Source: Candidatus Iainarchaeum sp.
Lineage (GTDB): Archaea > Iainarchaeota > Iainarchaeia > Iainarchaeales > 0-14-0-20-30-16
Length of the DNA stretch: 32,000 nt
Reading direction: 5' to 3'
Assembly (NCBI GenBank): GCA_028710695.1
Contig: JAQTTP010000004.1
Span: 1 to 32,000, forward strand
The position numbers and the translations under genes were made by a program. Under the pieces are notes generated by a model, which was not told where the DNA came from, searched no databases, and worked only from the letters and a program-made list of their open reading frames with translations. Shown piece by piece: positions 14,524 to 29,470 of this stretch (position 1 is the stretch's first letter; every line of letters starts with the position of its first letter).

Positions 14524-15216
14524 CTATCCAATCTTTGTAACAACAGCTACATTTTCAATATATTTTTCTACTTTTATTCTGAATCTTAAATCTTTAATAT
14601 TTCTTAGTTCGCCATGATAAGGATATATTATAAGTCGCCCACCCTTGCTTAGCGAGTGTGCAAGCATTTCGGCATATTGGAATTCTAATCCTTGCGTAAC
14701 ATAGTGTAGGCCGCCCCAATATGAAACTATTAAATCATATTCTCTGTCTGGGGTAAATCCTTCTAGGCTTCTTTGGATTATTCTGTCTATTGCCCCCTTT
14801 TCTAATTTGTGTTTTAGTTGAGGGGTTGTTGTTAAGCCCATTGCTGTTGTATGAACGCGGTTTCCAAAAAAATGTTTTAATAGTGCAAGATAGTTCCCAT
14901 CTCCTGCCCCTAAATCTAAGATATGAACTTTGTCCCTTGTTTCCAATAATTCTCTTATGTGCCTGTGTATATCTACTCCGTAGTCGGAAATCGAATAAGT
15001 TATTCTCCGTCGTGAATATGTTGCTGTTTCTCCGCCATTTTCATTTGCTTTTCTGTCTTTTTCTAAAGCTTTTCTGAGTTTATTACGTATTTCGTCTCTT
15101 GTCTCGGGATCTCTTAGTCTTTCTAAATATGTGCGGTGTAACCTTTCGACATGGGGGTTTAAGAATTGTGGTTTATCTGCCCTGTGCCCAACAATGGCTC
15201 TGATTAATTCGCGCAT
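14524..15216 (-). CDS. Class I SAM-dependent methyltransferase with N-terminal extension (paralogue C)
   Basis: VHILDLGAGDGNYLALLKHFFGNRVHTTAM, EYDLIVSYWGG and HSLSKGG. N-terminal module is FLNPHVERLHRTYLERL. Its stop codon directly abuts the pheS stop (convergent, 0-nt gap). Confidence 0.75.
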   Translation of the reverse strand: MRELIRAIVGHRADKPQFLNPHVERLHRTYLERLRDPETRDEIRNKLRKALEKDRKANENGGETATYSRRRITYSISDYGVDIHRHIRELLETRDKVHILDLGAGDGNYLALLKHFFGNRVHTTAMGLTTTPQLKHKLEKGAIDRIIQRSLEGFTPDREYDLIVSYWGGLHYVTQGLEFQYAEMLAHSLSKGGRLIIYPYHGELRNIKDLRFRIKVEKYIENVAVVTKIG

Positions 15217-18691: not shown

Positions 18692-18719
18692 AAAAAAGCA
18701 TTTTGCTTTTTGCAAAATG
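18692..18719 (-). terminator. Hairpin plus T6 tract downstream of tRNA-Ile (putative terminator)
   Basis: An 8-bp stem (18699-18706 / 18712-19) with a 5-nt loop. On the minus strand it is followed by CTTTTTTG (complement of 18691-18698). Confidence 0.45.
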
Positions 18720-18804
18720 TTTCAGGACCTGAAGCGGTTTGTTTACAAACCGGCTTCTTGTAGTGCACTTTTGGCGAACTTAGCCTTTTTGTAAAAGGCT
18801 AGAA

Positions 18805-18878
18805 TGGGAATGCCCGGATTTGAACCGGGGACCTTCCGATTATCAGTCGGATGCTCCACCAGGCTAAGCTACACTCCC
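18805..18878 (-). tRNA. tRNA-Ile (anticodon GAU), intron-less, no encoded CCA
   Basis: Hand-folded minus-strand sequence: GGGAGTG TA GCTT AGCCTGGTG GAGC A TCCGA CTGATAA TCGGA AGGTC CCCGG TTCAAAT CCGGG CATTCCC A. The acceptor stem is 7 bp (one G-U), the D stem 4 bp, the anticodon stem 5 bp and the T stem 5 bp, with a canonical T-loop. Confidence 0.93.
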
Positions 18879-18879
18879 T

Positions 18880-18949
18880 CTGCCCTTTTTCTTTTGCGAA
18901 AGAAAAAGTGTAAGTTGCCCAAAAAGAAAGGCGCTTCGCAGTTATAAAC
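18880..18949 (-). repeat. Copy A of the ~70-nt stable-RNA-associated element (TATA-like box plus hairpin leader) immediately 5' of tRNA-Ile
   Basis: Minus-strand reading: gtttataact|gcgaagcgcctttctttttgggcaacttacactttttctttcgcaaaagaaaaagggcag, then a, then tRNA +1. The 60-nt core matches 22163-22222 at 58/60 (counted by hand). It contains a 10-bp hairpin CTTTTTCTTT/AAAGAAAAAG. Confidence 0.85.
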
Positions 18950-19111
18950 AGATAGATATGTTTTAGTGCAATTTGTTTTTAAACATTATCTTTTAAATTT
19001 GTGTTTTTTAAGCTGATGGTAGTTAACTTTAAAAAATATCCTATGTTATATAATCTGGTTTTTTAAACAATATGTCTTAAGAATATATTAATACCTTATG
19101 GTTGTGGTGTA

Positions 19112-20020
19112 ATGGGGAAAAAAATACTTCTTGTTGGTGTTGGCTCTATTGGAACTTATCTTGCTTTAAAATTGTCTGCTGGCGGAAATGATGTTACTGT
19201 TTTGCGAAGTAGTAAGCTTAATGGCATAAAAACAGGAGATTCTATAAAAATAAATGGGGCGCCTTTTGTAGTTCCTAATCTTGTTGATGAATTAAAAGAT
19301 AAAGATCCAACTTTTTATGATTATATATTTTTAACTTGTAAAATGTATGATATTAGAAATTTGCTTAAAGAAATTATACAAAAAGGTCTAAAATTTGGAA
19401 CTTTAATATCTATACAGAACTCTTTGTTTGAGGATATGTGGTATTTTGATTACATTAAAGATAAGCCTTTTGTTATTGTGTCTGTTTACGAAGGATTCTT
19501 TTTGGATGGTAGGGACATAAAAAAATCTGATTACAAAGGTTGGTTCGTTGAAGATGATATGCTTGGAAGAGATATTCATAAACTCCTTTTGGGGTCAGAT
19601 ATTGCTGTTTCGCTAGTTTCTGATATAAGAAAGTTGAGGGCGGAAAAAACAGTAATTAACTGTGCTTTGAATGCAATATCTGCGATAGAAGACAAAACCT
19701 TTGCAGAGATGATTGCTAATAGAAAGATTAAACAAGAAATGAAAACTATATTTGACGAAAGCTATGATATTCTTTCAGAATTAGTAAAAATGAAAGCTAA
19801 AAGAATGTTGTGGCAAGAACTGCTTGACCGTGCAAAAGAAATGAAACATTATTCAAGCACCTGGCAAGATGTTAAACAAAACAGGAAAACAGAGATTGCA
19901 TTTTTGAATGGGTATGTGGTAAGTTTATCAAGAAGATTGGGTAAACCTGCGTCCTATAATCAAATAATAATGGATAAGTTTAGGGCAAAGTATCCTGGTT
20001 TGTATTACGTTCAGTTATAA
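19112..20020 (+). CDS. 2-dehydropantoate 2-reductase family (PanE/ApbA-like) oxidoreductase
   Basis: N-terminal Rossmann KILLVGVGSIGTYLALKL. C-terminal signature SSTWQDVKQNRKTEIAFLNGYVV matches the S-x-x-QD...TE-x-x-x-NG pattern. Confidence 0.75.
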   Translation: MGKKILLVGVGSIGTYLALKLSAGGNDVTVLRSSKLNGIKTGDSIKINGAPFVVPNLVDELKDKDPTFYDYIFLTCKMYDIRNLLKEIIQKGLKFGTLISIQNSLFEDMWYFDYIKDKPFVIVSVYEGFFLDGRDIKKSDYKGWFVEDDMLGRDIHKLLLGSDIAVSLVSDIRKLRAEKTVINCALNAISAIEDKTFAEMIANRKIKQEMKTIFDESYDILSELVKMKAKRMLWQELLDRAKEMKHYSSTWQDVKQNRKTEIAFLNGYVVSLSRRLGKPASYNQIIMDKFRAKYPGLYYVQL

Positions 20021-20030
20021 AAAAGGAAAA

Positions 20031-20519
20031 TTATTTTTTCTTTCCCTTTTTTTGGATTTTTTTCATCTTTACTTTTATCAGTATCCCTAACTCAACAAAT
20101 ATTATTATTCCCAAGATTAATGCAATTATTGAATCAGAGTTGTAGAATGCAATGTTTGCAATTATACTGCTTAGTAGAGCACCATAAAATAACCCGTTTA
20201 TGAAAATATCCATTGTTAGGAATATTACTCCTACAAGAATTACTATTGTTATGATGTTTATTAACAAAAGTTTATTCTTTTCCTTAGCTTCTCTTGCTGT
20301 TTGGTAATCTTTATAGCAGGCATCCATTTCTGCTTGTTGTGGAGAGAATCCGTTTATGTCATAAACTGGTTTTACCTTACTATAACAATCGTCATAATCA
20401 TTTGTTTTAAAGAAAATATTTGATGCATAAAACACCAAAGAGGTAAATAGTATTGCGATTAAGCCAATAAAAATGAATTCTTTTACTTTATTAATGTCTA
20501 CTGTCATGTCTGACCACAT
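20031..20519 (-). CDS. Hypothetical membrane protein (162 aa)
   Basis: One N-terminal TM, a Cys/Asp/Tyr-containing loop, three C-terminal TMs and a KKIQKKGKKK tail. Confidence 0.55.
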   Translation of the reverse strand: MWSDMTVDINKVKEFIFIGLIAILFTSLVFYASNIFFKTNDYDDCYSKVKPVYDINGFSPQQAEMDACYKDYQTAREAKEKNKLLLINIITIVILVGVIFLTMDIFINGLFYGALLSSIIANIAFYNSDSIIALILGIIIFVELGILIKVKMKKIQKKGKKK

Positions 20520-20567
20520 ATCATAAAAGACTTGTAGTATTATATATGTTTTTAATTTATATCTTAC

Positions 20568-21200
20568 ATGAATAGGGTAATTAAAACACTGATGCTTTCA
20601 GACATCTTTATACTAACTGGGTTTGGGTTAATAGACCCAATAATGGCTATTTTCTTTAAAGAATACTTAATTGGTGGAACAGTAATTGCTGCAGGAATTG
20701 CTTGGGCTATATTTTTAACAACAAAAAGCATAGTGCAAGTACCATTCTCTAAGTATGTTGACAAACATATGAAAAGTATGGGCTGGTTGATATTTGGTAC
20801 CTTTATGATTGCGCTGGTGCCATTTATCTATATTTTCTCAACCCATATTTGGCATATATATGTGGCTCAGTTTATTCATGGAATCGGGTCAGCAATAGCA
20901 TATTCTACTTGGCTTGGTATCTGGAGCAGGAACTTAGATAAGAACCAAGAAAGCTTTGAGTGGAGCCTATATTCTACTGTTTCTGGGATTGGAACTGCAA
21001 TAACGGCATTTTGTGGTGCTTTAATTGCTCAATATGTTGGCTTTACCTATACCTTTATCATGGTTGGGGCGTTATCATTGCTTGGGTGTGTAGTTTTAAT
21101 GTTTGCAGAATATAAATCTGAAGAGATATACAAGCTTAATTTGAGGAACTATCATAAAAAGCTTCAGAAACGGCATTTATTTGGAAAAGGAATATTATAA
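20568..21200 (+). CDS. Half-size (6-TM) MFS-like membrane protein
   Basis: About six predicted TM helices. The loop FSKYVDKHMKSMGWL resembles MFS motif A. There is no room for a second 6-TM half on either side. Confidence 0.55.
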   Translation: MNRVIKTLMLSDIFILTGFGLIDPIMAIFFKEYLIGGTVIAAGIAWAIFLTTKSIVQVPFSKYVDKHMKSMGWLIFGTFMIALVPFIYIFSTHIWHIYVAQFIHGIGSAIAYSTWLGIWSRNLDKNQESFEWSLYSTVSGIGTAITAFCGALIAQYVGFTYTFIMVGALSLLGCVVLMFAEYKSEEIYKLNLRNYHKKLQKRHLFGKGIL

Positions 21201-21253
21201 CTGTGGCATTCATGTCACTCTTTTCTTTTGAAAACAGACCCCTGCGGTCTGCA

Positions 21254-21309
21254 TTCTTTCTTTTTGGAAGACTGTAGCTTTTTCCTTTCTTTTTAAGAAA
21301 GAAAAAGCT
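21254..21309 (+). repeat. Copy C (diverged) of the hairpin element, abutting and overlapping the 3' end of the RNase P RNA on the opposite strand
   Basis: ttctttctttttggaagactgtagctttttcctttctttttaagaaagaaaaagct shares the ordered blocks tttctttttgg / ctttttc(c)tttc / gaaagaaaaag with copies A and B. Hairpin arms are 21276-21289 and 21297-21309. The blocks are low-complexity, so homology is only moderately supported. Confidence 0.4.
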
Positions 21310-21539
21310 TAGTAGTAGGGCGTAGGCCACCTTCTGTTTTTAGCTAGCATTAATCTAAGCGCGTTTGCTTGCATCCGTGAAGCAAAACCATCTTTCAGCC
21401 TGATGCAGAAACCTCAATTTTCTATCATAGTAATTCTGCAGGGTGTATTTCTGTTGGTTGTGTCATCCTTCTCAGGATTTTTCTCACATAATGGATGGGC
21501 GGACCTTCCTCCTTGCGGGAGCTAGCCACCTACTACTAA
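21309..21539 (-). ncRNA. rnpB: RNase P RNA, compact form (~231 nt)
   Basis: The minus strand starts UUAGUAGUAGG UGGCUAGC UCC-CGCAA-GGAG GAAGGUCCGCCC... and ends ...GCUAGCUA AAAACAGAAGGUGGCCUACG CCUACUACUAA. P1 is 11 bp between the termini, P2 is 8 bp (UGGCUAGC/GCUAGCUA) and P3 is a small hairpin. The CR-I-like GAGGAAGGUCCGCC and the ACAGAA-GGUGGCCUA block pair as P4 (AGG[U]CCGCC / GGUGGCCU) with the universally conserved bulged U. An A-U to G-C covariation relative to the E. coli P4 is visible. A GGCUGAAAGAUGG J11/12-like block is present. TTATAATA lies ~28-32 nt upstream of the 5' end. Confidence 0.75.
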
Positions 21540-21609
21540 TAGATTTATAAACTGAATAAGAATATATTATAATAGCTAATAATTCATATTACTAGTTTTA
21601 GGTGATTTA

Positions 21610-21993
21610 ATGGATGCAAAATTTTATAATGTTAAGGCAGAAGCAAAGGAACTTGTAATTAGTTTAGAAGAGAACGACCCAATATTAATTTCAATTAAGG
21701 ATGCACTAAAGGAAAATAATGTCTTTACTGCAGAATTGATAAGTATGAAGGGAAATATCAAGAATTTTAAAGTAAATTACTTCGAGAAATCATCTCTAAA
21801 AACTATTTCTATATTTGATTCTTGTGAAGTAGTTAAATGTAGCGGAGAATTCAAATACGACTTGGGTCCAGACAAGCTTTTTGGAAGAGCAAGAATAAAC
21901 TATAGGCACAAGGATAAAGTATTTGATGGAATCCTAAACTCTGGATTTGCTTGTGATGGCTTAGAGATCACTCTTAGATTCTATGAACTGTAA
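21610..21993 (+). CDS. Small PPC/DUF296-like domain protein (127 aa)
   Basis: The pattern ...ELISMKGNIKNFKVNYF...EVVKCSGEF...LFGRARINY...VFDGILNSGFACDGLEITLRF resembles the PPC (plants-and-prokaryotes-conserved) beta-sheet domain. This is a weak, by-eye assignment. Confidence 0.4.
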   Translation: MDAKFYNVKAEAKELVISLEENDPILISIKDALKENNVFTAELISMKGNIKNFKVNYFEKSSLKTISIFDSCEVVKCSGEFKYDLGPDKLFGRARINYRHKDKVFDGILNSGFACDGLEITLRFYEL

Positions 21994-22025
21994 CCTTTAT
22001 TTTTGCCTTTAGATAGTGAGGCAGG

Positions 22026-22033
22026 TTTATAAA
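22026..22033 (+). promoter_or_regulatory. TATA box (TTTATAAA) of tRNA-Tyr
   Basis: AGGTTTATAAAG is centred ~33 nt upstream of tRNA +1. The same GTTTATWA core recurs upstream of tRNA-Ile, upstream of the RNase P RNA and inside the tRNA-Tyr intron. Confidence 0.4.
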
Positions 22034-22062
22034 GATTTCAGTGAATATATGATTATATTAAT

Positions 22063-22260
22063 CCCGCCTTAGCATAGTGGCTAATGCGTTCGGCTGTAGA
22101 CGACATAGTGAGTATACTCACAGAAAGAGCGCATAACACAATTTAAGGTTTATTACTCCTACGCGAAGCGCCTTTCTTTTTGGGCAGCTTACACTTTTTC
22201 TTTCGCGAAAGAAAAAGGGCAGTAACCGAAAGATCCTTGGTTCAAGTCCGAGAGGCGGGA
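22063..22260 (+). tRNA. tRNA-Tyr (anticodon GUA) with a 125-nt intron at the canonical 37/38 position (intron 22100-22224)
   Basis: Exon 1: CCCGCCT TA GCAT AGTGGCTA ATGC G TTCGG CTGTAG. Exon 2: A CCGAA AGATC CTTGG TTCAAGT CCGAG AGGCGGG A. The C1-G72 pair (archaeal/eukaryal Tyr identity) and a short variable loop are present. In the BHB-like fold, C32-U35 (CUGU) pairs with intron GCAG (22219-22222), flanked by 3-nt bulges AGA and UAA. The outer helix is weak, so the motif is relaxed hBH. Confidence 0.9.
22148..22222 (+). repeat. Copy B of the element, forming the 3' 60 percent of the tRNA-Tyr intron
   Basis: gtttattact cctac gcgaagcgcctttctttttgggcagcttacactttttctttcgcgaaagaaaaagggcag. The 60-nt core (22163-22222) is 58/60 identical to the reverse complement of 18880-18939. 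The upstream gtttatWact box is also shared, with a 5-nt indel. It contains the perfect 24-nt palindrome ctttttctttcgcgaaagaaaaag. Confidence 0.85.
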
Positions 22261-22261
22261 T
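22250..22261 (+). repeat. attL candidate: GAGAGGCGGGAT (3' end of tRNA-Tyr)
   Basis: This exact 12-mer recurs at 28654-28665 in direct orientation. It is GC-rich in an AT-rich context and lies next to the integrase gene. Confidence 0.5.
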
Positions 22262-22323
22262 AAAGGAACGGGTTTAATCCCGTTCCACAAATATTTATAA
22301 TTTTTTCGGTCCTAGTTCTTACA

Positions 22324-23502
22324 ATGGCTTCAATATATCATGATGACAAAAGAATAGCAAATGCAGTCAAAAACTTAAACTCTGATATTAATATTCCACC
22401 AATTGCTAAAGATGAAATAACAAAATATATTGAATACTGTGCAGCAAGAGGAATAAAAAAAGTAAGATTTCCAAAATTAATTGGCGAGTTATCAAAAATG
22501 GCAACACTCTTAAAAAAATCATTTAAAGAGGCAAACAAAGATGACCTTATTTCTTTAGCTGCAAAGATAGAAAGCTTAGATTTAGCAGATTATACAAAAT
22601 ACGAATATAAAGTTGTACTTAAACGATTTTATAAATACTTAGAAGGGCGAGACATTAAGTATCCTGAAAAAATTGATTGGTTAAAACCAAAAGAGCCTAT
22701 GAGTACGAGACTTCCAGAAGACATTCTTACTGAAGAAGAACTATTAAAAATGATAGAATCTGCAGAACACCCAAGAGATAGGGCAATAATGATGTTGCTC
22801 TCTGAAACTGGGTTTAGAGTGGGAGAATTGGCAACTTTAAAAATAAAAAATATTACCTTTGAGACAGAAATGGGTTATGTAAGGGTCGACGGAAAAACAG
22901 GCCCTCGAAGAATACCTATTGTGCCATCAATACCTTACTTGGCGGCATGGTTGGATCTACATCCGCAAAAAAACAACCCAGAAGCCCCTCTGTGGCCTTG
23001 TTTAGCGAATAAAGATAGAAATAATCCAGCACCAATGGGATATAATGCAATTAGAAAATTATTGATAACTATCGGAAAAAGAGCAAAGATTACAAAAAGA
23101 ATAAATCCACATAGTTTTAGGCATGCAAGAGCAACATTAATGGCAAGAAAGAATATCTCTGAACAACAGATGAAACAATATATGGGCTGGTCTCAAAATT
23201 CAAAGGAAGTATCAACTTATGTCCATATGGCAAGTAAAGACTTAAATGATCCCATAAAAAAGCTCTACGGCCTAAAAATCGAAGAAACAGAAAAATCAAA
23301 GTTCGCACCAAAAGACTGCCCAAGGTGTTCAGCAAAAAATTCCCCCAATAGTAACTTTTGTACTAAATGTGCTTGCCCTTTAGATACACAAACATTATTA
23401 GACTATGAGCAACAAAAGAAAGAGAATGAAGATTTATTAGACAAAATATTAACTGATCCAATAATAAGAAAACAAATTGTTTTTAAGCTATTGAATAAAT
23501 AA
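22324..23502 (+). CDS. int: Tyrosine recombinase/integrase with C-terminal zinc ribbon
   Basis: SAM-like N-domain. Catalytic residues are ETGFRVGELATLK (Arg), HSFRHARATLM (H-x-x-R) and GWSQNSKEVSTYVH (Trp/His and Tyr nucleophile). The C-terminal CPRCSAKNSPNSNFCTKCACPLD is a CxxC-x10-CxxC motif. A TATA-like ATATTTATAA lies ~27 nt before the ATG. Confidence 0.9.
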   Translation: MASIYHDDKRIANAVKNLNSDINIPPIAKDEITKYIEYCAARGIKKVRFPKLIGELSKMATLLKKSFKEANKDDLISLAAKIESLDLADYTKYEYKVVLKRFYKYLEGRDIKYPEKIDWLKPKEPMSTRLPEDILTEEELLKMIESAEHPRDRAIMMLLSETGFRVGELATLKIKNITFETEMGYVRVDGKTGPRRIPIVPSIPYLAAWLDLHPQKNNPEAPLWPCLANKDRNNPAPMGYNAIRKLLITIGKRAKITKRINPHSFRHARATLMARKNISEQQMKQYMGWSQNSKEVSTYVHMASKDLNDPIKKLYGLKIEETEKSKFAPKDCPRCSAKNSPNSNFCTKCACPLDTQTLLDYEQQKKENEDLLDKILTDPIIRKQIVFKLLNK

Positions 23503-24477
23503 TCATAAAAAAATGTTTAATTGCTTATTCATTCCAATAGACCCATCTATACAAATTGCTGTATCCATAAAAATCGCAGAATTAACTGGCAAAAGCATTT
23601 TTTCAGTAAATAATTTTGATAGTTCTGATAGGATAAAATTCCAATTTAAAAATTCATCTTTTTGAGACAATATATAAGTTTTAAATTTTTCAGGAGAATA
23701 ATCGGTGCGATTCCTACGATTTTTCAAATAATCAAACACAGCCTTTTTCTTTACGTTTTGATCAACTGAATTAAGGACTAAATTAGAATTACTGTTTAAT
23801 CCATCATAGCCAGAAATACGTATTGCAAAGATATTTACTATAATTATACGAAAAAAACCGTGCAAATCACGGAAATTATTTTTGTTAACTTCACTAAAGG
23901 ATAATTTACTAAATAAACTATAAATATTTTCTTCAAATTCTTTAGCGTTCTTTTGCGCGTCATCATAACTAATTCCAGAAAGTAGATTTTTTCGTAGGAT
24001 TGAATTCATTAACAAAGATCTTACATATGATTCATTAGTATCTGTAATTTTTCTTGTAAATATATAAAAATAAAATAAATATATTGCAAAAATTCCAGTA
24101 ATGGATAAGTTGTTAATTCCCTGTATTGCTCTCAATTCTTTTGCAGGAAAAGTAGAACTAACAAAAGCATTAAATTTATTCCCGTCCTTAGCAGAGATCT
24201 TTTCTATTAGAAGTTTAGGCAAATGTTTTTTTAAAAATAAACTATATACTTTAATCCAATTGATTTCATATGGATTTTTTGTTTTATAATGTCTGGGTAT
24301 AATTATATCATCTAATGTCGAACCAATATTGACCCCTGCCCTTTTTCCCCAATAGTAGTCAAAGGTACTTTTTGTACCTTCAAAAACATCTTGAAATATG
24401 CCGTTATATGTTTTTGGTTTCTCTGCCAAAGATAAAAATGCTTTCGATATTAGTGTATCTACGTAAACTTTATTCAA
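23503..24477 (-). CDS. Hypothetical protein (324 aa), element cargo
   Basis: Long ORF convergent with int (0-nt gap). One central hydrophobic segment (ITGIFAIYLFYFYIF). No recognisable motif. Confidence 0.6.
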   Translation of the reverse strand: MNKVYVDTLISKAFLSLAEKPKTYNGIFQDVFEGTKSTFDYYWGKRAGVNIGSTLDDIIIPRHYKTKNPYEINWIKVYSLFLKKHLPKLLIEKISAKDGNKFNAFVSSTFPAKELRAIQGINNLSITGIFAIYLFYFYIFTRKITDTNESYVRSLLMNSILRKNLLSGISYDDAQKNAKEFEENIYSLFSKLSFSEVNKNNFRDLHGFFRIIIVNIFAIRISGYDGLNSNSNLVLNSVDQNVKKKAVFDYLKNRRNRTDYSPEKFKTYILSQKDEFLNWNFILSELSKLFTEKMLLPVNSAIFMDTAICIDGSIGMNKQLNIFL

Positions 24478-24554
24478 ATAAACACCTTGAAAACTATGAA
24501 TAAAAACATATTCACTACGTAAATAATATAAATGAATCTAAAAGGGGGATAAAA

Positions 24555-24704
24555 ATGGGTAAAGATCGAAAATTATGTGTTATTTTGACGGAGATGGATG
24601 ATAAACTTTTAGCTGAGCTGTCAAAAACATCTGGACTAACAAAATCAAGCATTGTACGTCTACTTTTAAAACGGGCATTGTCGGAGGGCTGGACCCCATG
24701 CTGA
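24555..24704 (+). CDS. Ribbon-helix-helix (CopG/Arc/MetJ-like) DNA-binding protein, 49 aa (not in ORF track)
   Basis: Own translation: MGKDRKLCVILTEMDDKLLAELSKTSGLTKSSIVRLLLKRALSEGWTPC*. It shows the beta-strand, helix, G-x-[ST], helix pattern of RHH proteins. AGGGGGAT lies 6 nt upstream. The stop overlaps the next ATG (ATGCTGA). Confidence 0.6.
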   Translation: MGKDRKLCVILTEMDDKLLAELSKTSGLTKSSIVRLLLKRALSEGWTPC

Positions 24705-25030
24705 TTTCACAAAGATTAAAAGAATTACAGTTGGAGGCAAATAATATCTCTAATTTACCAATAACTGCACAGTCGCAATACATTTTCTTTGAATTAAATC
24801 TTGATTCCACACAACAAATTAATCAAAACTTTTATTCAGAGATTATAGGGGGTAAACAAAATCTGATTTCCAATATTACTACGAGCCCGTATTATCTGCC
24901 ACAACAGGTAATAACTTGGATATCACAATTTCAAGATATAGCAGGCAAGATTTCTACTGAATTAAATGAAATAAAAATAGCATACGAAAAAACAGTAAGT
25001 TTGAATTCCATATATGGTGATTTAGCATGA
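24698..25030 (+). CDS. Hypothetical protein (110 aa), element operon gene 2
   Basis: Overlaps both neighbours (7 nt and 4 nt ATGA). Gln/Asn/Ile-rich with no motif. Confidence 0.5.
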   Translation: MLISQRLKELQLEANNISNLPITAQSQYIFFELNLDSTQQINQNFYSEIIGGKQNLISNITTSPYYLPQQVITWISQFQDIAGKISTELNEIKIAYEKTVSLNSIYGDLA

Positions 25031-25806
25031 CTGCAAAAGAAAAAGTATTTGAATTCCTTAAAAAAGAAAATAAACAATATACACCTAAAATAATTTCAAA
25101 GCTCCTTCAGATAGACATAAACACAACACGCGGAGCACTAATAGATCTTTACAAAACAGGGGTAGTTTCAAAGAGCCACCATTATTATTATGTGCCAAAT
25201 GAACAAACCAACGGTGTTGATTACTTGGCCCAAAATTGTGGCGTAAAATATCAGACAAAACAATCAATAATACATAAAGAAAAAGAAATACAGTTAAACC
25301 ACATAAAAATAAGAATAATTTACGGGGAAAAAAATAACCAAGTTACTGCAAAAATTTCCTGTGAGCCTCCAATAAGCATAGAGTTACTTATTGCGGCAAT
25401 ATTAAAAGTAAAGGAAGATATTTTTGAAGAAATAAAAGAACTGCCAAAAGATACAGAAATCCAAATAACAACTTTAGAGTTAAACCAAGATTATCCTAAT
25501 TGGAGGTTTGATGGCATTAACTGCATGACCTTAAATGACGTCTGGGGCTTTTTAAAGATATACAATAAGGATAACCCTACCCGAGTACGTAAAGAGCTAA
25601 GGGCGAGGCTAAAAATAACTCTGGCAGATTTACAACAATTATTAACATACGGAATAACCGAAAGCACAAACAGAGTATATTTAGATCATTCAATTGCAGA
25701 TCTAAAACAAACTATTGCTGTAGATGGTCAAGCAACCAGAAACATTATTTATGCTGCATTAGATAAGCATAACAAGCACATTCCAAGCACAAAGGAGGAG
25801 AATTAA
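25027..25806 (+). CDS. Winged-helix N-terminal domain protein (259 aa), element operon gene 3
   Basis: KEKVFEFLKKENKQYTPKIISKLLQIDINTTRGALIDLYKTGVVSK is a typical wHTH. The C-terminal ~190 aa are unassigned. Confidence 0.6.
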   Translation: MTAKEKVFEFLKKENKQYTPKIISKLLQIDINTTRGALIDLYKTGVVSKSHHYYYVPNEQTNGVDYLAQNCGVKYQTKQSIIHKEKEIQLNHIKIRIIYGEKNNQVTAKISCEPPISIELLIAAILKVKEDIFEEIKELPKDTEIQITTLELNQDYPNWRFDGINCMTLNDVWGFLKIYNKDNPTRVRKELRARLKITLADLQQLLTYGITESTNRVYLDHSIADLKQTIAVDGQATRNIIYAALDKHNKHIPSTKEEN

Positions 25807-26268
25807 ATGGTTAATTTTAATCCACAACCACAGTTTGGTACTAATTTAAATGCAGTAGACTGTGGTAGGAAGGGGGGAAAAAGCACCACAATTAAGACGG
25901 TATTTGCGAGAGAATTAAAAAAAATCCAAAGCTTGGATGCTAAAGACCATCTACAAAAAACAGAGGTCATAGATAAAAATGGGAATAAAGTCGACATCTA
26001 CACCGTTTTGTTGGCGGGGGAGGATGGTATTGACTGTACTATTAAGAGTATTTTAGGAATATATCTCACTAAACTCGACAGAATGGTACAAAATACAAAG
26101 GATGATTACGAGCAAGTAAGACTTATTAAAGAGTGTATAAAAGCCGTGTGTAAGGTAAAAGAAGTGCTTTATGGCAAGAAAGTACGAGCCCCAGAAGGAC
26201 CAAACATATTTGAGATTCAAAAAGCAACTAAGCTTTTTGAAGAGCTTGAAAAAGACGATGGCAATTAA
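25807..26268 (+). CDS. Hypothetical protein (153 aa), element operon gene 4
   Basis: The ATG follows the previous TAA with no gap. The N-terminal GRKGGKSTT basic motif is DNA-binding-like (inference). Confidence 0.5.
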   Translation: MVNFNPQPQFGTNLNAVDCGRKGGKSTTIKTVFARELKKIQSLDAKDHLQKTEVIDKNGNKVDIYTVLLAGEDGIDCTIKSILGIYLTKLDRMVQNTKDDYEQVRLIKECIKAVCKVKEVLYGKKVRAPEGPNIFEIQKATKLFEELEKDDGN

Positions 26269-26317
26269 CCGCCATAAACGCTACAAAGCGCCCACAAATG
26301 GGCTTATAAATCAAATC

Positions 26318-27331
26318 CTAAGAGCCCCACTCTTTTAGACAGGCACTTTTTAATTGTTCATTTTCTATTTTATTACAATACGATGCAGAATTTGCTTTGA
26401 ACGAATATGAATAAAGGCACACATCTTTTGTATTTATTTCATCAGCAAATCCTACTGCCATATAGTGCCTATTATTGTGGTTACATACCAAATCAGTGTT
26501 TTTTATTTCAGCAACATAAGATAAACAAGTACCAAATTGGGCCTCGCCCACTATTGGGTCACAATCTTCTGGTTCTTTTGCAACACCATAATATTTTCCG
26601 ATATAACAACTTTGTTGTTTTTCTGAGTCTCCTTGCAAATTAAAATCATACAAAAAACATTCATCTTCAACAATATTTTTTGCTTTTAGATAGTCGGCTT
26701 CTAATATGTTGTCATAATTTGCTATAAAATAAAAATTATCTATCTGACTGACATAATTTCCATCATCTAAGATGTAATCAGTTATTTGCCACCCACTTAA
26801 GCTATCTTTTAGCTTATAAGTAGAATCATATATTTTACTTTTATTTCCCTCATTAATCTGTAATTTTAGATCAACTTTACAAATGTCCTCTGAAGAATAG
26901 ATGGATTTAATGGATACAATTTCATAAGTTACTTTATCATTTAAGCTAAAATAATAATTTAGATAACTAATACAGTTAGACTCATAACCAAAATAGTTAG
27001 CAACACAAAGGTCATATAAGTCATTGTAATTATTTAATAAAACATCAAAATATTTTTGCCTTGCCTCGATATAAGATAAAGCAGGGCCAACAGTTATTTT
27101 TGATTGAAAAATTAAGTTTTTTATTTTTCCAGTTACTGATTCATAAGCAGCATACTTAATAAAATCCCCTACAACCTGTGCTGTAGGATCACAATTAACA
27201 TCTTTTTTTGTTTCAATTATTGGTGCCAAAGTATTCTTATCGTTACTATCGGAAACACACCCTGATAAAATAAACATTAACATACACAAAGCAACAATCC
27301 CAGATATTACAAAAACCCCATAAAACCTCAT
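26318..27331 (-). CDS. Cys-rich secreted lipoprotein (337 aa)
   Basis: Signal peptide plus lipobox (MLMFILSGC|VSDS). More than 15 Cys are spread through the mature part. A 4-nt ATGA overlap links it to the upstream gene. Confidence 0.7.
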   Translation of the reverse strand: MRFYGVFVISGIVALCMLMFILSGCVSDSNDKNTLAPIIETKKDVNCDPTAQVVGDFIKYAAYESVTGKIKNLIFQSKITVGPALSYIEARQKYFDVLLNNYNDLYDLCVANYFGYESNCISYLNYYFSLNDKVTYEIVSIKSIYSSEDICKVDLKLQINEGNKSKIYDSTYKLKDSLSGWQITDYILDDGNYVSQIDNFYFIANYDNILEADYLKAKNIVEDECFLYDFNLQGDSEKQQSCYIGKYYGVAKEPEDCDPIVGEAQFGTCLSYVAEIKNTDLVCNHNNRHYMAVGFADEINTKDVCLYSYSFKANSASYCNKIENEQLKSACLKEWGS

Positions 27332-27588
27332 TTAGATCCCTCTTTATATATCAAAAAAAGCCCTGCCACTACAAGAACTACGGATGCAATTATAACAATC
27401 CAATCAACAACCAAGACAAGGTTACATTGTTCAAGCAAGCCTCCAAGAATAGAACCACAAAACGTATGTGCATAACTTAAACTAAAAACTTTTTCACCCT
27501 GAGGGTATATTGGTACAAAACGCAATAAAAACAGGATAACCCCAATAATAATGAGTAAATACTTTTTTTGTCTAAGATCCGTATCCAT
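27328..27588 (-). CDS. Small two-TM membrane protein (86 aa from the revised start)
   Basis: I moved the start to the ATG at 27588 (MDTDLRQKK...), which is preceded by AAGGTGA 5 nt upstream. The track's longer version would overlap the upstream gene by 32 nt. Confidence 0.55.
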   Translation of the reverse strand: MDTDLRQKKYLLIIIGVILFLLRFVPIYPQGEKVFSLSYAHTFCGSILGGLLEQCNLVLVVDWIVIIASVVLVVAGLFLIYKEGSK

Positions 27589-27598
27589 TATTTCACCT

Positions 27599-27919
27599 TT
27601 ATTTAGAATAATATTTCTGAAACTCGTCATCTGTGCTTATTAAATATAATATGCCCTCAATAAATCCCACTATTGCAGGTATAAAAGTCCAACAAAAAAC
27701 AAGGTATAGAATTCCTAACCCGACTCTATTTAAATAAAATTTATGTACACCGAATCCACCCAAAAATATTGCTAAAAGACCTGCGGTGAGTTTATCTTTT
27801 TTTGCTACTACTTGTTTTTGTCTTACCCCACATTTAGGGCATATTTCTGCCTCCGTCTTTATAATTTCTCCACAAGATGGACAAAAAATTTCGTCTGCCC
27901 CTTTTACTTTCTTAGCCAA
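27599..27919 (-). CDS. Zinc-ribbon plus TM2-domain membrane protein
   Basis: N-terminal CPSCGEIIKTEAEICPKCG, then LTAGLLAIFLGGFGVHKFYLNRVGLGILYLVFCWTFIPAIVGFIEGI, the TM2-domain signature. Confidence 0.75.
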   Translation of the reverse strand: MAKKVKGADEIFCPSCGEIIKTEAEICPKCGVRQKQVVAKKDKLTAGLLAIFLGGFGVHKFYLNRVGLGILYLVFCWTFIPAIVGFIEGILYLISTDDEFQKYYSK

Positions 27920-28017
27920 AACATCACCTTCTAAATAGAGTATAGCAAAGTTTAAAATACTTGTTTGCTAAGCTTGTGCTAATCTTTCATATATACATCG
28001 CTAATGCCTTTTTCTAT

Positions 28018-28272
28018 ATGATTGAGGACTTAAGCTTTGTTTTGAGAGGCAAAATAAGAACACAAATTATTACCTCACTTACCAATCAAAAGAACCCACA
28101 GAGAATAGCTAAAGAGATAAATACACACTTATCTACAACAAGTAGAGCTCTAACTGATTTAGAATCAAAAGGGCTTGTTAAATGCCTAAACCCAAAGGAT
28201 GCATTCATGCGATTTTATGAATTAACTGAGAAAGGAAAAGAAATAAAGGCAGAAATAAAAAAGGTTATATAA
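28018..28272 (+). CDS. Small winged-helix (ArsR/MarR-like) transcription regulator (84 aa)
   Basis: LRGKIRTQIITSLTNQKNPQRIAKEINTHLSTTSRALTDLESKGLVKCL. The start is moved to the first ATG (28018) because the track uses an upstream TTG. Confidence 0.65.
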   Translation: MIEDLSFVLRGKIRTQIITSLTNQKNPQRIAKEINTHLSTTSRALTDLESKGLVKCLNPKDAFMRFYELTEKGKEIKAEIKKVI

Positions 28273-28283
28273 AAAACATTATA

Positions 28284-28625
28284 ATGAATAAAATAATTAA
28301 AGGTATTCACCAAAGCACTATAGAGATAGTTGCCTCTGCTGGAACCGGGTTAATAATATCGGCTATTTATTACGAAATTTTTGAATCATCTGTTTTTTGG
28401 GGTATATTTTTCTTGATTTGTGTTTATATTCTTTGTATTATAAGCTATATTGGGTTCTTCCAAGATATGTCCAAACAAGTCAAATATACAATTGGTTGGG
28501 TTATCGGGGGGGTAATAATTATTAAATACTGCCCAGAAATAGTGTCATGGGATATGTTGCCATATTTTATTATTCCGGTTTCTACTTTAGGGTATAAAAT
28601 ATATAAACATTACAAAAAAACGTGA
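28284..28625 (+). CDS. Hypothetical 3-4 TM membrane protein (113 aa)
   Basis: A hydrophobic ORF 11 nt after the regulator gene and the last gene before the attR candidate. Confidence 0.55.
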   Translation: MNKIIKGIHQSTIEIVASAGTGLIISAIYYEIFESSVFWGIFFLICVYILCIISYIGFFQDMSKQVKYTIGWVIGGVIIIKYCPEIVSWDMLPYFIIPVSTLGYKIYKHYKKT

Positions 28626-28653
28626 TGCGGGCTTATACCCGCCACCTAACGTA

Positions 28654-28665
28654 GAGAGGCGGGAT
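28654..28665 (+). repeat. attR candidate: GAGAGGCGGGAT
   Basis: Exact direct repeat of 22250-22261. It is preceded by CCCGCC (28638-28643), which equals the 5' acceptor strand of tRNA-Tyr and can pair with GGCGGG. It is followed by a T-rich tract. Confidence 0.5.
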
Positions 28666-28698
28666 TCATTTTCTTTTTTAAATTCAACAAGAACATGG

Positions 28699-29256
28699 CT
28701 ATTTCCCCGCAACTATTTTTACAATACTTTTCCTTTGTACAAGATAGTCTCCTGGCTTGGAATAATACCTTTCTGTGTAGGGGGAAGAATGTGCTTCTGC
28801 TTCAGTTATTGGCCTTATTTCTAAGACTCTAAATTTAGTTCTTTCTAAGGCTTGCCTTAAATCAGAAACATTTTTTATGCCTGCAACAATAATTTCTAAT
28901 CTGCCTGCAGGTTTTAGTTTTCTATAAATATACTTTAAAACTTTGAGATTATATTCCACGGTAATAATAGAATTAAACTTTGGCCCATAATGCCCTAAAG
29001 CCAACTCACTTGTAATTAATTCTGCGCTGTTGTCTTTTAAAGTTCTTAGTCCAGAGATAAAATCCCCTGTATGTTGACGCCAATTAGCAGTGTGAGCAAT
29101 TTCTGATTTAGTTGTATCAATGCCCAAAAACCTCTTCTCTGGTGCTTTTAAAGCGTGTTCTCTTGTTTTGGCACCATTATCTGAGCCAAGATTCCCCAAA
29201 TGCACAACATCTGCGTGCGGCTTTCTTATCCAAGCAGACAATTTCCTAAAAACCAT
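28699..29256 (-). CDS. Divergent class I methyltransferase-fold protein (185 aa)
   Basis: VVHLGNLGSDNG occupies the motif I position, RFLGIDT the motif II position and LKPAGRLEIIV the motif near beta-5. The glycine-rich SAM loop is non-canonical. It is not a close relative of paralogues A-C. Confidence 0.55.
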   Translation of the reverse strand: MVFRKLSAWIRKPHADVVHLGNLGSDNGAKTREHALKAPEKRFLGIDTTKSEIAHTANWRQHTGDFISGLRTLKDNSAELITSELALGHYGPKFNSIITVEYNLKVLKYIYRKLKPAGRLEIIVAGIKNVSDLRQALERTKFRVLEIRPITEAEAHSSPYTERYYSKPGDYLVQRKSIVKIVAGK

Positions 29257-29470
29257 ATAAAAATTAAGGGTAGTTCTTTATAAAACATATTCTTTTAGAT
29301 TGCCATGGCCAAAAACAGATTCCTTTTTATTTTTACTTATTTTACTTATATAAGTTAAATAAGGTGATTTTAAAGGCAAATTAAGGTGAATGTATGGTCA
29401 AGTTTGAATTTATGCTCGGCAGGTTCGCAAAAATGTCAAACAGGAACCATAAAATGGATGGGGTGATTTT

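Follow-up and report, generated by a model that had tools for sequence, protein, structure and literature searches.

A structured repeat module shared by a tRNA-Tyr intron and a tRNA-Ile leader in Candidatus Iainarchaeum

The gain of tRNA introns and the interconversion of intron-containing, split, and permuted tRNA genes remain open questions, and the locus analyzed here raises them in a concrete form: why should part of a tRNA-Tyr intron be a near-copy of the sequence upstream of tRNA-Ile? Within the window (the whole stretch of 32,000 nucleotides that was analyzed), the best inverted repeat returned by a repeat finder consists of two 60-nt blocks, one in the intron of tRNA-Tyr and the other in the leader of tRNA-Ile, which lie 3.2 kb apart and match at 58 of 60 positions (97%); the runner-up pairs reach at most 47 nt at approximately 70% identity. 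A sequence-only reading of this DNA had proposed the 58/60 match with its two differences, both A/G transitions, and the repeat finder confirms it. One mismatch falls at core position 25, in the context GGGCA(G/A)C, and the other at core position 45, which in the Tyr copy is the hairpin-closing G. That reading had also described the intron sequence (22148-22222) as GTTTATTACT followed by CCTAC and the core, set against GTTTATAACT followed by the core upstream of tRNA-Ile; this layout is correct, and a gapped alignment carries the similarity about 30 nt further upstream. Measured from the 60-nt match itself, a weaker similarity runs for about another 35 nt upstream, through the TATA-like box. 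The core had been said to end one or two nucleotides before mature tRNA sequence, and so it does: a single A (18879) separates it from tRNA-Ile +1, and the 3' splice site of tRNA-Tyr lies 2 nt beyond its terminal GCAG.

Table 1. Features of the window discussed in the text
Feature	Position	Strand	Basis or remark
tRNA-Tyr(GUA) gene	22063..22260	+	ARAGORN with introns; spliced cloverleaf; BHB-compatible fold
tRNA-Tyr exon 1	22063-22099	+	
tRNA-Tyr intron	22100-22224	+	125 nt, site 37/38
tRNA-Tyr exon 2	22225-22260	+	
TATA-like box GTTTATTACT in Tyr intron	22148..22157	+	0.9 bits, top 2.8%
CCTAC insert	22158-22162	+	follows the TATA-like box
60-nt module, intron copy	22163..22222	+	repeat finder; covariance model match 75 bits; mirror test
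Intron copy, GCGAAGCG		+	
Intron copy, Y1 pyrimidine tract	22171-22181	+	
Intron copy, linker GGGCAGCTTACA	22182-22193	+	
Intron copy, hairpin 5' arm	22194-22204	+	
Intron copy, loop	22205-22206	+	
Intron copy, purine arm	22207-22217	+	
Intron copy, GGGCAG tail	22217-22222	+	
GCAG, 3' strand of central 4-bp helix	22219..22222	+	pairs with C32-U35 (22094-22097); sequence, enforced fold
60-nt module, tRNA-Ile leader copy	18880..18939	-	repeat finder; covariance model match 75 bits
Leader copy, Y1	18931-18921	-	
Leader copy, linker	18920-18909	-	
Leader copy, hairpin	18908-18885	-	
Leader copy, GGGCAG tail	18885-18880	-	
tRNA-Ile(GAU)	18805..18878	-	ARAGORN, Rfam
TATA box P2, GTTTATAACT	18940..18949	-	6.0 bits, top 0.2%; spacing rule; identical in orthologous locus L024
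TATA-like box P1, GTTTAAAAAC	18975..18984	-	3.7 bits; conserved in L024 and L020
Diverged third family member	21248..21316	+	covariance model match 26.5 bits, E ~1e-4; mirror test
Archaeal RNase P RNA, host/neighbour of third copy	21311..21537	-	Rfam RF00373, 108.5 bits

Neither Rfam nor ARAGORN at its default settings finds the gene that hosts the intron copy. Once introns are permitted, ARAGORN reports the gene and its 125-nt intron, but places the splice 2 nt off and names the product Asn; splicing at 37/38 yields a clean tRNA-Tyr(GUA) cloverleaf of 73 nt with C1-G72 and A73, which bears out the intron as originally placed. The terminal GCAG of the block pairs with the anticodon-loop CUGU (positions 32–35) through C-G, U-A, G-C, and U-G pairs, as had been described, and a 3-nt 3' bulge (UA/A, the slash marking the splice site) is likewise present, together with a 3-nt 5' bulge (AG/A), as in a BHB intron. 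The fold with BHB geometry enforced has an energy of -56.9 kcal/mol, against -61.3 kcal/mol for the unconstrained optimum, a cost of 4.4 kcal/mol. No outer helix of the strict hBHBh' type was found beyond the 5' bulge, the intron from +2 onward (CGACAU) being unpaired with the bases 5' of GCAG, and the tRNA-Tyr motif therefore takes the relaxed form. This relaxed form is common at 37/38. The intron thus has the cloverleaf, central helix, and bulges of an archaeal BHB intron at 37/38, and its cleavage is predicted; sequence and fold together show that the block's own GCAG builds the central helix with C32-U35 and sets the 3' splice site. A 7-kb integrated element with an integrase also adjoins tRNA-Tyr, beginning after the tRNA 3' end (22261) and ending at 29315, and a search for attR found no copy of the tRNA-Tyr 3' end downstream. 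The core was considered as the attachment site of this integrase and rejected, since the element starts past the tRNA 3' end and relatives without the element retain the core. The sequence-only account mentions neither the integrase nor the mirror-repeat (triple-helix) signature and the wider family treated below.

Both blocks share one layout, in which a pyrimidine tract is followed by a 12-nt linker, a hairpin, and GGGCAG, and we refer to this unit as the module. Read in mirror image, the upstream pyrimidine tract equals the hairpin 5' arm, so that it can lie along the purine arm as a third strand in parallel orientation. Of 14 distinct instances, 13 show tract and purine arm in parallel complementarity without a mismatch over 9–14 nt, and the observed mirror statistic, which uses hand-delimited tracts, was reached by none of 100,000 permutations. 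At least six run-length signatures change together in all three strands, and the register is specific (95.5% paired, versus 58–73% after sliding); column-wise covariation within the strict family is modest, being reached by 37/500 and 11/500 shuffles. The tract could also be viewed as a direct repeat of the hairpin arm, a view that is disfavoured because the mirror fit is at least as good as the direct fit in 14/14 instances and strictly better in 10. The tract-hairpin architecture is restricted to family members. A three-stranded fold is predicted for the module, in which the tract would lie in the major groove of the purine arm and form U.A-U and C+.G-C triples; the strand order and polarity of ENE-type elements (two U-rich strands and one A-rich) and covariation that keeps the triples are both present. 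The 5' edge of the module also carries GCGAAGC, which matches the well-known stable DNA mini-hairpin; since the wider family does not conserve this sequence, the match was treated as a coincidence.

Beyond the window, approximately 300 kb of related sequence was searched, and the module was found at many unrelated loci in at least nine other metagenome or MAG sources. A scan for a 21-mer returned 11 metagenome matches, a count that includes the L005 sequence again, and 10/11 keep the flanking tracts, the hairpin, and GGGCAG; their hosts are tRNA-Trp, Asn, and Gln introns, a 23S rRNA intron, and tRNA-Ile(UAU) and tRNA-Arg trailers. All members of this strict family were collected by the exact 21-mer, so the conservation of the linker among them is partly by construction. 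A covariance model added diverged members in an RNase P trailer, in a tRNA-Ser intron, and at the 5' end of the L005 intron, and it finds three copies within the 32-kb window. The family thus occupies introns of tRNA-Tyr, Trp, Asn, Gln, and Ser, a 23S rRNA intron, the tRNA-Ile leader, and the 3' trailers of tRNA-Ile(UAU), tRNA-Arg, and RNase P RNA. Its copies occur in both orientations and lie 0–6 nt from mature RNA ends, with the GGGCAG end facing the mature RNA in every case. About half of them are antisense to the host RNA and have no TATA box, which indicates that the family did not spread by plain copying of a promoter plus leader. The mobile leader/intron cassette of the sequence-only reading is thereby supported in a wider form than was proposed, the further core copies from metagenomes adjoining tRNA ends or sitting in introns of other RNAs. 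With these copies, and with the module shared by orthologous tRNA-Tyr introns and tRNA-Ile leaders in relatives, the outcomes which that reading had named as refuting it did not come about.

Comparison with relatives places the duplication in time. In L005 the tRNA-Tyr intron is 258 nt long and terminates in a core identical at 60/60 positions, the 5' part of the intron being unrelated, and the tRNA-Ile leader of L024 matches the core at 57/60 positions and is identical over the upstream 40 nt, next to an ApbA protein that is only 63% identical. Across species, Tyr copies carry G at core position 25 and Ile copies carry A, and the Tyr copies of the window and of L024 have a 5-nt insert in common; the duplication is therefore older than speciation. 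In the tRNA-Ile leader of L020 the tract and linker are present and the hairpin is lost, and some introns (L005, L011) bear inverted partial copies at both ends.

Abutting the RNase P RNA at the 3' end of the latter, the third copy in the window runs antisense to that RNA; between the copy's Y1 tract TTCTTTCTTTTT and its purine arm AAGAAAGAAAAA the mirror relation holds at 12/12 positions, and L023 has the copy in the same place. A TATA box had been attributed to the RNase P RNA as well, an attribution that does not stand: the nearby GTTTATAAA lies only 6 nt from the first helix (21537), which is the wrong spacing for a promoter given that TATA boxes in the source genome lie about 20–24 nt from start sites.

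Neither of the two loci yields a match to the module in Rfam 15, whether at gathering thresholds or at E <=10, the only credible hits being tRNA and RNase P, and a literature search found no publication with the motif; the element is new in the sense that no Rfam family or paper describes it. Two core patterns gave zero matches in viral contigs and hence no sign of a viral origin. Readings of the module as a C/D box RNA, an H/ACA RNA, or a small ribozyme were rejected because the defining boxes and an Rfam match are lacking; the C box RUGAUGA and the D box CUGA are absent from both intron and module. The euryarchaeal tRNA-Trp intron houses a C/D box sRNA, and the module resembles it as a conserved unit within a long tRNA intron, one family member indeed residing in a tRNA-Trp intron, but differs in having neither C/D boxes nor an Rfam match at E <=10.

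Presence of the element varies among related genomes and among samples of one species. In the spacer between tRNA-Ile(UAU) and ileS, for example, L012 has it, L034 has a diverged form, and L033, L035, and L036 lack it. Loci with identical ApbA from different samples differ by a 76–100-nt insert in the linker, and homologous inserts occupy the Ile leader in one haplotype and the Tyr intron in the other; tRNA-Tyr itself differs in position and orientation in related genomes. As with MITE-type elements, there are several copies per genome and presence/absence differences at orthologous sites; the terminal inverted repeats with target-site duplication of such elements were not found, inverted partial copies being confined to some introns. 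Neither a transposase nor a target-site duplication nor a clear insertion mechanism was found, and the flanks of 12 copies share no duplication, so the word "mobile" refers here solely to distribution. Simple models of an empty site plus an insertion are not claimed, as the comparisons of L012 with L033 and of the window with L020 disagree on the boundaries of the unit.

Which part of the module is transcribed at tRNA-Ile depends on the promoter. P2 is the probable promoter of tRNA-Ile, and the spacing rule from leaderless genes predicts its start at G18920-18918, the GGG of the linker (GGGCAAC), which would leave the pyrimidine tract outside the leader RNA; use of P1 would instead bring all of the module, Y1 included, into the transcript. 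The boxes in Tyr introns score 0.9–1.9 bits, whereas the tRNA-Ile box reaches 6.0 and the tRNA-Tyr promoter 9.3; scores as good as those of the intron boxes occur at about 1 in 40 window positions (top 2–3%).

The explanation we favor, with somewhat more confidence than doubt, is that the two blocks are long-resident copies of a structured repeat module of Diapherotrites/Iainarchaeum-type DPANN that spreads between stable-RNA genes and sits at their processing sites. Such a module, made up of the pyrimidine tract, the linker GGGCARCUUACA, a U-rich/A-rich hairpin, and GGGCAG, would recombine and spread among stable-RNA genes and would persist where RNA processing removes its copies (introns, 5' leaders, and 3' trailers), with GGGCAG against the mature sequence. 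At tRNA-Ile it would lie between promoter and +1 and probably be removed by RNase P, and at tRNA-Tyr it would constitute the last third of the intron. The purine arm of the hairpin would, as the covariation suggests, also be bound in its major groove by the upstream tract, and this triplex fold may leave the excised intron or leader with a compact 3'-terminal unit that resists nucleases. The Tyr and Ile copies would then be old paralogs whose similarity is held by selection, with no involvement of recent local conversion. One point against this explanation is that the antisense copies, about half of the total, nevertheless keep the mirror, which a sense-only RNA triple helix leaves unexplained. 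The hairpin lost from the L020 leader also speaks against it, as does a pyrimidine tract outside the tRNA-Ile leader RNA should P2 be the promoter. Leader-intron homology and transposed introns of archaeal tRNAs were reportedly described by Fujishima et al. in 2010. Transposed or duplicated archaeal tRNA introns, and homology between leaders and introns of split or permuted tRNAs, provide the nearest background (Chan et al., 2011, PMC3218864; Sugahara et al., 2012, PMC3293823). The likeness includes near-identical sequence that recurs in introns of more than one tRNA and that an intron shares with a 5' leader, association with BHB junctions, population-level allele differences, and mobile-element genes adjoining the tRNA. 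Transposed introns are, however, known from Thermoproteales, other TACK archaea, and Nanoarchaeum, whereas the present module is from Diapherotrites (DPANN) and also occurs in both orientations, in 3' trailers, and in a 23S rRNA intron; nor has an architecture like its conserved mirror tract and hairpin been reported for them.

Several other explanations compete with that of a spreading module at processing sites. A single local duplication or gene conversion of two nearby loci, of no wider meaning, would suit two copies so close together and so nearly identical, but it is scarcely credible: the orthologous tRNA-Tyr introns and tRNA-Ile leaders of relatives hold the same module, which recurs at the many unrelated loci counted above. 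The possibility that the intron contains a working TATA box and start, raised in the sequence-only reading, is improbable on present evidence. The 3' half of tRNA-Tyr would then also, or only, be made as a separate transcript with the module as its leader, and the splicing machinery would join it to the 5' half, as in a "recently split" tRNA. The homology with the tRNA-Ile upstream region does take in the TATA box, whose predicted start falls exactly at GGGCAAC, and all four Tyr-intron variants have a TATA-like box 21–26 nt upstream of GG(G)CA, even in the L023 allele, where the upstream sequence is unrelated. There is also a precedent in the tRNA-Asp(GUC) of Aeropyrum pernix, a "recently split" case with an internal promoter in a long 37/38 intron (PMC3218864). 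Both introns have a TATA box of tRNA-promoter type with a predicted start a few tens of nucleotides before the 3' splice site, but the A. pernix promoter is strong and resembles that of its own gene, whereas the box in the Tyr intron is weak, resembles that of tRNA-Ile, and is variable or replaced in relatives. Moreover, the 5-nt insert moves the predicted start into a T run, and the intron 5' of the box has no T run of four or more, so that nothing there would terminate a separate 5'-half transcript. The trailer of a 5' half and the leader of a 3' half would have no extended complementarity, only a short AGAAAGAGCGC/GCGCCUUUCU pairing in the fold, and no TATA box at all accompanies the members that run antisense to their hosts.

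Two further proposals concern the predicted triple helix itself. It is rather unlikely, in our judgment, that the module is a functional stability element capping RNA 3' ends. RNase P would cut 1 nt after it, or the splicing endonuclease 0–2 nt after it, and the released leader or intron would end in a U.A-U/C+.G-C triplex that blocks 3'-5' decay, leaving a small, stable RNA on which the conserved 12-nt linker is exposed. In MALAT1 and MEN-beta, an ENE and an A-rich tract form a triple helix, with an RNase P cut at the tRNA-like mascRNA (PMC13541005), and the module matches them in strand order (Hoogsteen U, Watson-Crick U, A), in U.A-U triples broken by C+.G-C, and in lying immediately 5' of an RNase P or tRNA-processing cut. 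The mirror covariation also favors a cap, as does a core conserved like tRNA exons between genomes whose ApbA is approximately 60% identical. Known ENE cases are, however, eukaryotic or viral, and their two U tracts face each other across an internal loop of a stem, whereas those of the module, in its predicted fold, are joined by a 12-nt single-stranded linker and 6–7 unpaired nucleotides follow the A tract. A pyrimidine-type RNA triplex is impossible for the antisense copies, the tract may sit upstream of the tRNA-Ile start site, and three related genomes lack the element over 69 kb; in the sequence at hand, the reverse complement of the linker matched only the elements themselves, yielding no target. 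The broader proposition, of an archaeal counterpart of the MALAT1/viral ENE cap, spread as a cassette and turning excised introns and leaders into protected RNAs, is doubtful though worth entertaining. An even less conventional reading has the triplex-forming tract guiding the insertion site of the hairpin; at the one "empty" site examined, the purine tract was already there. We likewise consider it unlikely that the element acts in the DNA, its mirror repeat and palindrome forming H-DNA or a cruciform that would make stable-RNA genes hot spots of recombination or insertion, or would terminate or insulate transcription in both directions there, with any RNA effect incidental. This would account for a mirror kept in both orientations, for breakpoints and inserts that cluster in the linker (the would-be single-stranded tip of an H-DNA fold), for the relocation of tRNA-Tyr among related genomes, and for an assembly contig that ends inside the third copy; the antisense trailer copies, too, place T5 2–12 nt beyond the tRNA, a spot occupied in related genomes by plain U5/A5 hairpins. 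Yet T5 tracts also lie inside introns that need read-through, and a terminator would be pointless upstream of tRNA-Ile, next to a gene that points the other way; ordinary gene ends lack the architecture, for which reason the terminator reading was rejected. A pyrimidine-type DNA triplex, moreover, requires acid pH or supercoiling, and the GGGCAG end with its anticodon-loop pairing indicates a role at the RNA level. MITE and REP palindromes and H-DNA mirror repeats resemble the module in being short, structured, non-coding, multicopy, present in both orientations, and variable in presence, but the module differs from MITE and REP elements in having no target-site duplication or partner transposase, and in that its orthologous copies are strongly conserved and lie near mature RNA ends.

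A spreading module at processing sites can be traced across genomes through an intron, a leader, trailers, and an rRNA intron, and its population variants appear to have been caught mid-exchange. Should the predicted triple helix prove real, archaeal tRNA processing would have its first element of this kind, and the pairing of a triplex cap with a tRNA-type cleavage site would not be a eukaryotic invention. The module would also provide a concrete, testable RNA for structural and decay studies in DPANN archaea, a group that is difficult to approach by other means.

The strongest repeat in the window, by a wide margin, is an inverted pair of 60-nt blocks (18880-18939 and 22163-22222; 58/60 identity), which bears out the sequence-only reading that the tRNA-Tyr intron and the tRNA-Ile leader share a core. 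On the minus strand, one base (A18879) separates the left copy from +1 of tRNA-Ile(GAU). No tRNA gene was detected around the right copy by default ARAGORN or Rfam; with long introns allowed, ARAGORN returned a gene at 22062-22261 with a 125-nt intron, spliced two bases off and labelled Asn, and removal of 22100-22224 at the canonical 37/38 site leaves a clean tRNA-Tyr(GUA) that has A73 and the C1-G72 pair typical of archaea. The box and core in the leader (GTTTATAACT-core) and their counterpart in the intron (GTTTATTACT-CCTAC-core) had been read correctly, and in gapped alignment the similarity extends ~30 nt farther upstream. The final four bases of the module, GCAG (22219-22222), which precede 'UA', pair with C32-U35 of tRNA-Tyr, so that the 3' splice site falls in a 3-nt bulge. 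The proposed central helix is compatible with a bulge-helix-bulge (BHB) fold, 4.4 kcal/mol above the unconstrained optimum; because the outer helix beyond the 5' bulge is absent from the intron fold, this splicing motif has the relaxed form.

The two copies are not products of a recent local conversion. A 20-mer taken from the core and scanned against species-representative genomes gave one relevant match, L005 of an uncultured archaeon, an orthologous tRNA-Tyr whose 258-nt intron begins with 190 nt unrelated to the window intron and ends in 60 nt plus 'TA' that match the window core exactly. In that genome tRNA-Tyr lies >10 kb from tRNA-Ile. The ApbA-like protein of the window shows 100% identity to an NCBI protein of a 'Candidatus Iainarchaeum sp.' MAG, which places the window in a Diapherotrites (DPANN) archaeon. 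On the tRNA-Ile side, loci were obtained through ApbA homologs: the leader in L024 (ApbA 63% identical) carries the module at 57/60, with 40 upstream nucleotides including GTTTATAACT identical, and the leader in L020, from the L005 genome (ApbA 59% identical), keeps the TATA box, the tract and GGGCAACTTACA, with ~95 nt of another structured leader in place of the hairpin and GGGCAG. A one-off local gene conversion, the case that would have undone the sequence-only reading, does not account for a module kept in the L005 Tyr intron and the L024 Ile leader. Across species, core position 25 is A in Ile copies and G in Tyr copies, and a 5-nt insert marks the Tyr copy in both the window and L024; since both features are copy-specific, the copies are paralogs older than these species and do not stem from recent conversion.

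A metagenome scan with the central 21-mer yielded 11 loci, among them L010, the L005 tRNA-Tyr sequence again, and L018, which has nothing in common beyond the 21-mer. The flanks of the remaining loci follow one layout: a pyrimidine tract Y1 (e.g., CCUUUCUUUUU), the linker GGGCARCUUACA, a second tract Y2 (CUUUUUCUUUC), a loop, a purine arm R (GAAAGAAAAAG) and the tail GGCAG. Diverged members were found with a covariance model built from these strict copies. The search for further copies and their neighbours led to tRNA-Trp, -Asn and -Gln introns, a 23S rRNA insertion and tRNA trailers. At readable host boundaries the GGGCAG end (CUGCCC if antisense) always faces the mature sequence, 0-6 nt away (1 nt in Ile leaders, 2 nt in Tyr introns, 0 nt in Trp, 1 nt in Asn, and 2 and 6 nt in the two trailers). 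No Rfam family matched the module, and our literature search found no paper containing its motif.

Features of the window, host contexts of the module, and paired tracts of its subfamilies
Feature	Location	Strand or orientation to host RNA	Remarks
tRNA-Ile(GAU)	window 18805-18878	minus	ARAGORN and Rfam
ApbA-like protein gene	window 19112-20020		used to fetch homologous loci
Tyrosine recombinase	window 22324-23502		PF00589, 3e-23; directly downstream of tRNA-Tyr, 64 nt after it
Module, L011	3' end of tRNA-Trp(CCA) intron	sense	
Module, L017	5' end of tRNA-Asn(GUU) intron	antisense	
Module, L009	tRNA, anticodon loop CUCUGGA (Gln)	antisense	intron apparently in D-loop
Module, L016	within 23S rRNA insertion	antisense	
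Module, L012	tRNA-Ile(UAU) 3' trailer	antisense	
Module, L015	tRNA-Arg(UCG) 3' trailer	antisense	host GC 52% vs 32-37% elsewhere
Module, L014	upstream of or within start of membrane-protein ORF	sense	
Modules, L013 and L019	intergenic	not assigned	
Diverged module	window 21248-21316, RNase P RNA 3' flank	antisense	covariance model, 26.5 bits
Diverged module, L017	tRNA-Ser intron		covariance model
Diverged module, L005	tRNA-Tyr intron 5' end	antisense	covariance model; degenerate
Diverged module, L011	ahead of a tRNA 3' fragment		covariance model
L012 subfamily			purine arm GAAAAGAAAAA; upstream tract CUUUUCUUUUU
L013 subfamily			purine arm AAAAGAGAAAAA; upstream tract UUUUCUCUUUUU
L015, L023-Tyr, RNase P copy			purine arm AAGAAAGAAAAA; upstream tract UUCUUUCUUUUU
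L017-Asn			purine arm AAAAAGAAAAA; upstream tract UUUUUCUUUUU
L017-Ser			purine arm AAAAAAGAAAAG; upstream tract UUUUUUCUUUUC

A short direct-repeat word common to linker and tail (e.g., window 22182-22193 and 22217-22224) co-varies by subfamily: the main family has GGGCA(G), L034 has CUCAGA and the RNase P copy GUAG, and shorter words recur in L023-Tyr (GGCA), L017-Ser (UUA) and the second copy of L011 (UGC). Insertion could have created it by duplication, or the two words could be alternative partners of a single complementary strand. This sequence was also assembled independently from short reads, as Logan contig SRR22315508_266830, which ends at window 21283, inside the hairpin of the RNase P copy; such a break fits a sequence repeated in the genome.

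The Y2/R hairpin is paired in 96.7% of cells, compared with 74-87% in slid controls. Y1 is the mirror image of Y2 rather than a direct repeat and complements R when the two are read in parallel, as a third, pyrimidine strand lying in the major groove would (U.A-U and C+.G-C triples). This mirror relation tracks the subfamilies and is perfect over 9-14 positions in 13 of the 14 distinct instances; when tracts and arms were randomly re-paired among instances, the observed total was reached in 0 of 100,000 trials. The fit extends to two more diverged members (9/9 and 8/9), the Y1/R register is specific (95.5% versus 58-73% on sliding), and a generic architecture search across all the sequence analysed returned family members only. 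Column-wise covariation within the strict family alone is modest. We know of no copying process that produces mirror repeats, and selection on a triplex is therefore the simplest reading. The predicted triplex could exist in RNA, in single-stranded DNA or as H-DNA; that it actually forms in the module is what we infer from these sequence patterns.

Where the module lies sense in the Tyr and Trp introns it is certainly transcribed in full, and there its strands follow the order seen in the MALAT1/MEN-beta triple helix, which is located immediately upstream of the point where RNase P cleaves at a tRNA-like structure (PMC13541005). Against a purely RNA reading, approximately half of the copies run antisense to the host RNA yet keep the mirror. 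TATA boxes in this genome end 18-24 nt ahead of the start codons of apparently leaderless genes; applied to the tRNA-Ile box GTTTATAACT (6.0 bits, top 0.2% of positions), this spacing predicts a start at the linker GGG, and Y1 would then lie outside the transcript, which also counts against that reading. A transcript from a second conserved box 35 nt upstream of GTTTATAACT (3.7 bits) would include Y1. The L020 leader, with tract and linker and no hairpin, points to a link between this half and the promoter, again counting against RNA alone. A working promoter inside the tRNA-Tyr intron itself seems unlikely. The homology with the Ile leader takes in the TATA box, a TATA-like box stands 21-26 nt upstream of GG(G)CA in all four Tyr-intron variants, and a strong intron promoter has been reported in the A. 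pernix tRNA-Asp gene (PMC3218864); the Tyr intron boxes, however, score only 0.9-1.9 bits, a level equalled at ~1/40 window positions, the 5-nt insert shifts the predicted start into a T run, no run of four or more T precedes the box, and the intron has no trailer-leader complementarity. The TATA box earlier assigned to the RNase P RNA, GTTTATAAA (palindromic TTTATAAA, window 21541-21555), is an unlikely promoter for it, being only 6 nt upstream of the first helix P1; TAATATAT, a TATA-like box 24 nt upstream, fits the RNA better. The GTTTATAAA/TTTATAAA site probably drives the divergent gene at 21610, whose 57-nt leader contains a GGTGA ribosome-binding site.

The distribution of the module supports its putative spread, or recombination, between tRNA genes. 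The family is patchy, as 91 kb of other Diapherotrites sequence gave a single weak match. The gene beside the L012 copy encodes isoleucyl-tRNA synthetase (nearest named relatives in Diapherotrites), and the tRNA-Ile(UAU)-ileS order is kept in four further genomes (L033-L036); the strict element occupies this spacer in L012 only, the version in L034 is diverged and carries a long insert in its loop, and the element is absent from the spacers of L033, L035 and L036, the latter two having plain U5/A5 hairpins in its place. In L036 (9802-10000) ~four tandem repeats of aaaaaattaacgaaaaaagttggcg follow the hairpin. The element-free L033 spacer (9967-10000, compared with L012 3131-3213) already has AAAAAGAA, the complement of the pyrimidine tract flanking the L012 element, so that the segment inserted or deleted would be linker, hairpin and CUGCCC only. 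Loci from different samples with an identical ApbA protein represent two haplotypes: the L023 type has a 76-nt insert within the tRNA-Ile leader linker (GGGCAAC|...|TTACAC) and a 119-nt tRNA-Tyr intron with a variant module, and the L024 type has no insert in the Ile leader and a 221-nt tRNA-Tyr intron with a homologous insert at the same module place. The idea of a mobile leader/intron cassette therefore stands as regards copies in other introns, leaders and trailers and their presence or absence, but neither target-site duplication nor transposase was seen for module copies.

In both haplotypes tRNA-Tyr lies elsewhere, and in opposite orientation relative to tRNA-Ile, than in the window. There (18805-22260) it follows a PCC-domain gene on the plus strand; in L023 (314-3614) and L024 it is on the minus strand, flanked by an MFS gene and RNase P RNA. 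Relative to tRNA-Ile, the tRNA-Tyr unit has therefore moved and flipped. A second tRNA-Tyr promoter with the first 14 nt (CCCGCCTTAGCATA), followed by unrelated sequence, stands ~70 nt upstream of the working gene (L023 ~3099-3200, minus strand; L024 alike) and looks like a scar of insertion or integration at the tRNA 5' end. A second small hairpin module, GCTTTTTGC...GCAAAAAGY, recurs with relatives in linker inserts, the tRNA-Ile trailer and the long L005 intron (L023 ~400-480; L024 ~2600-2710; window 18708-18735), which suggests that several short palindromic repeat families build these introns and flanks. In L011 (1150-1328, 1533-1625), a ~50-nt unit occurs in three tandem copies upstream of tRNA-Trp, and downstream a diverged module precedes a partial tRNA 3' end (T arm + UAACCCCA). 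This fragment would form a perfect pairing with the 5' strand of tRNA-Trp and is possibly an old attachment-site duplicate.

The tyrosine recombinase heads a ~7-kb block (22261-29315) of small hypothetical genes (HTH, zinc-ribbon) that L023/L024 lack; in these two the RHH gene (window 29471-29659) comes directly after tRNA-Tyr, and homology to relatives restarts at 29316. The block is a mobile element that has integrated here, although its far end showed no clear direct repeat of the 3' end of the tRNA. It is unrelated to the core, since the core persists in relatives that lack the block. Sugahara et al. (PMC3293823) describe how elements of this kind reshape tRNA genes, which makes the block relevant background for the rearrangements seen here. 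Elsewhere in the window, three paralogous ~230-250-aa ORFs (2753-3502, 9067-9816 and 14524-15216, all minus strand) are 60-80% identical to one another over stretches of 57-88 nt (repeat families D1-D3), and on a Logan contig the first of them is annotated as Methyltransf_25-like.

The block shared by tRNA-Tyr and tRNA-Ile is genuine, and of greater interest than a local duplication would be. Its triple helix, and with it a protection of RNA ends, is a prediction; the block itself exposes a conserved, patchy, structured module of DPANN archaea at RNA-processing junctions.
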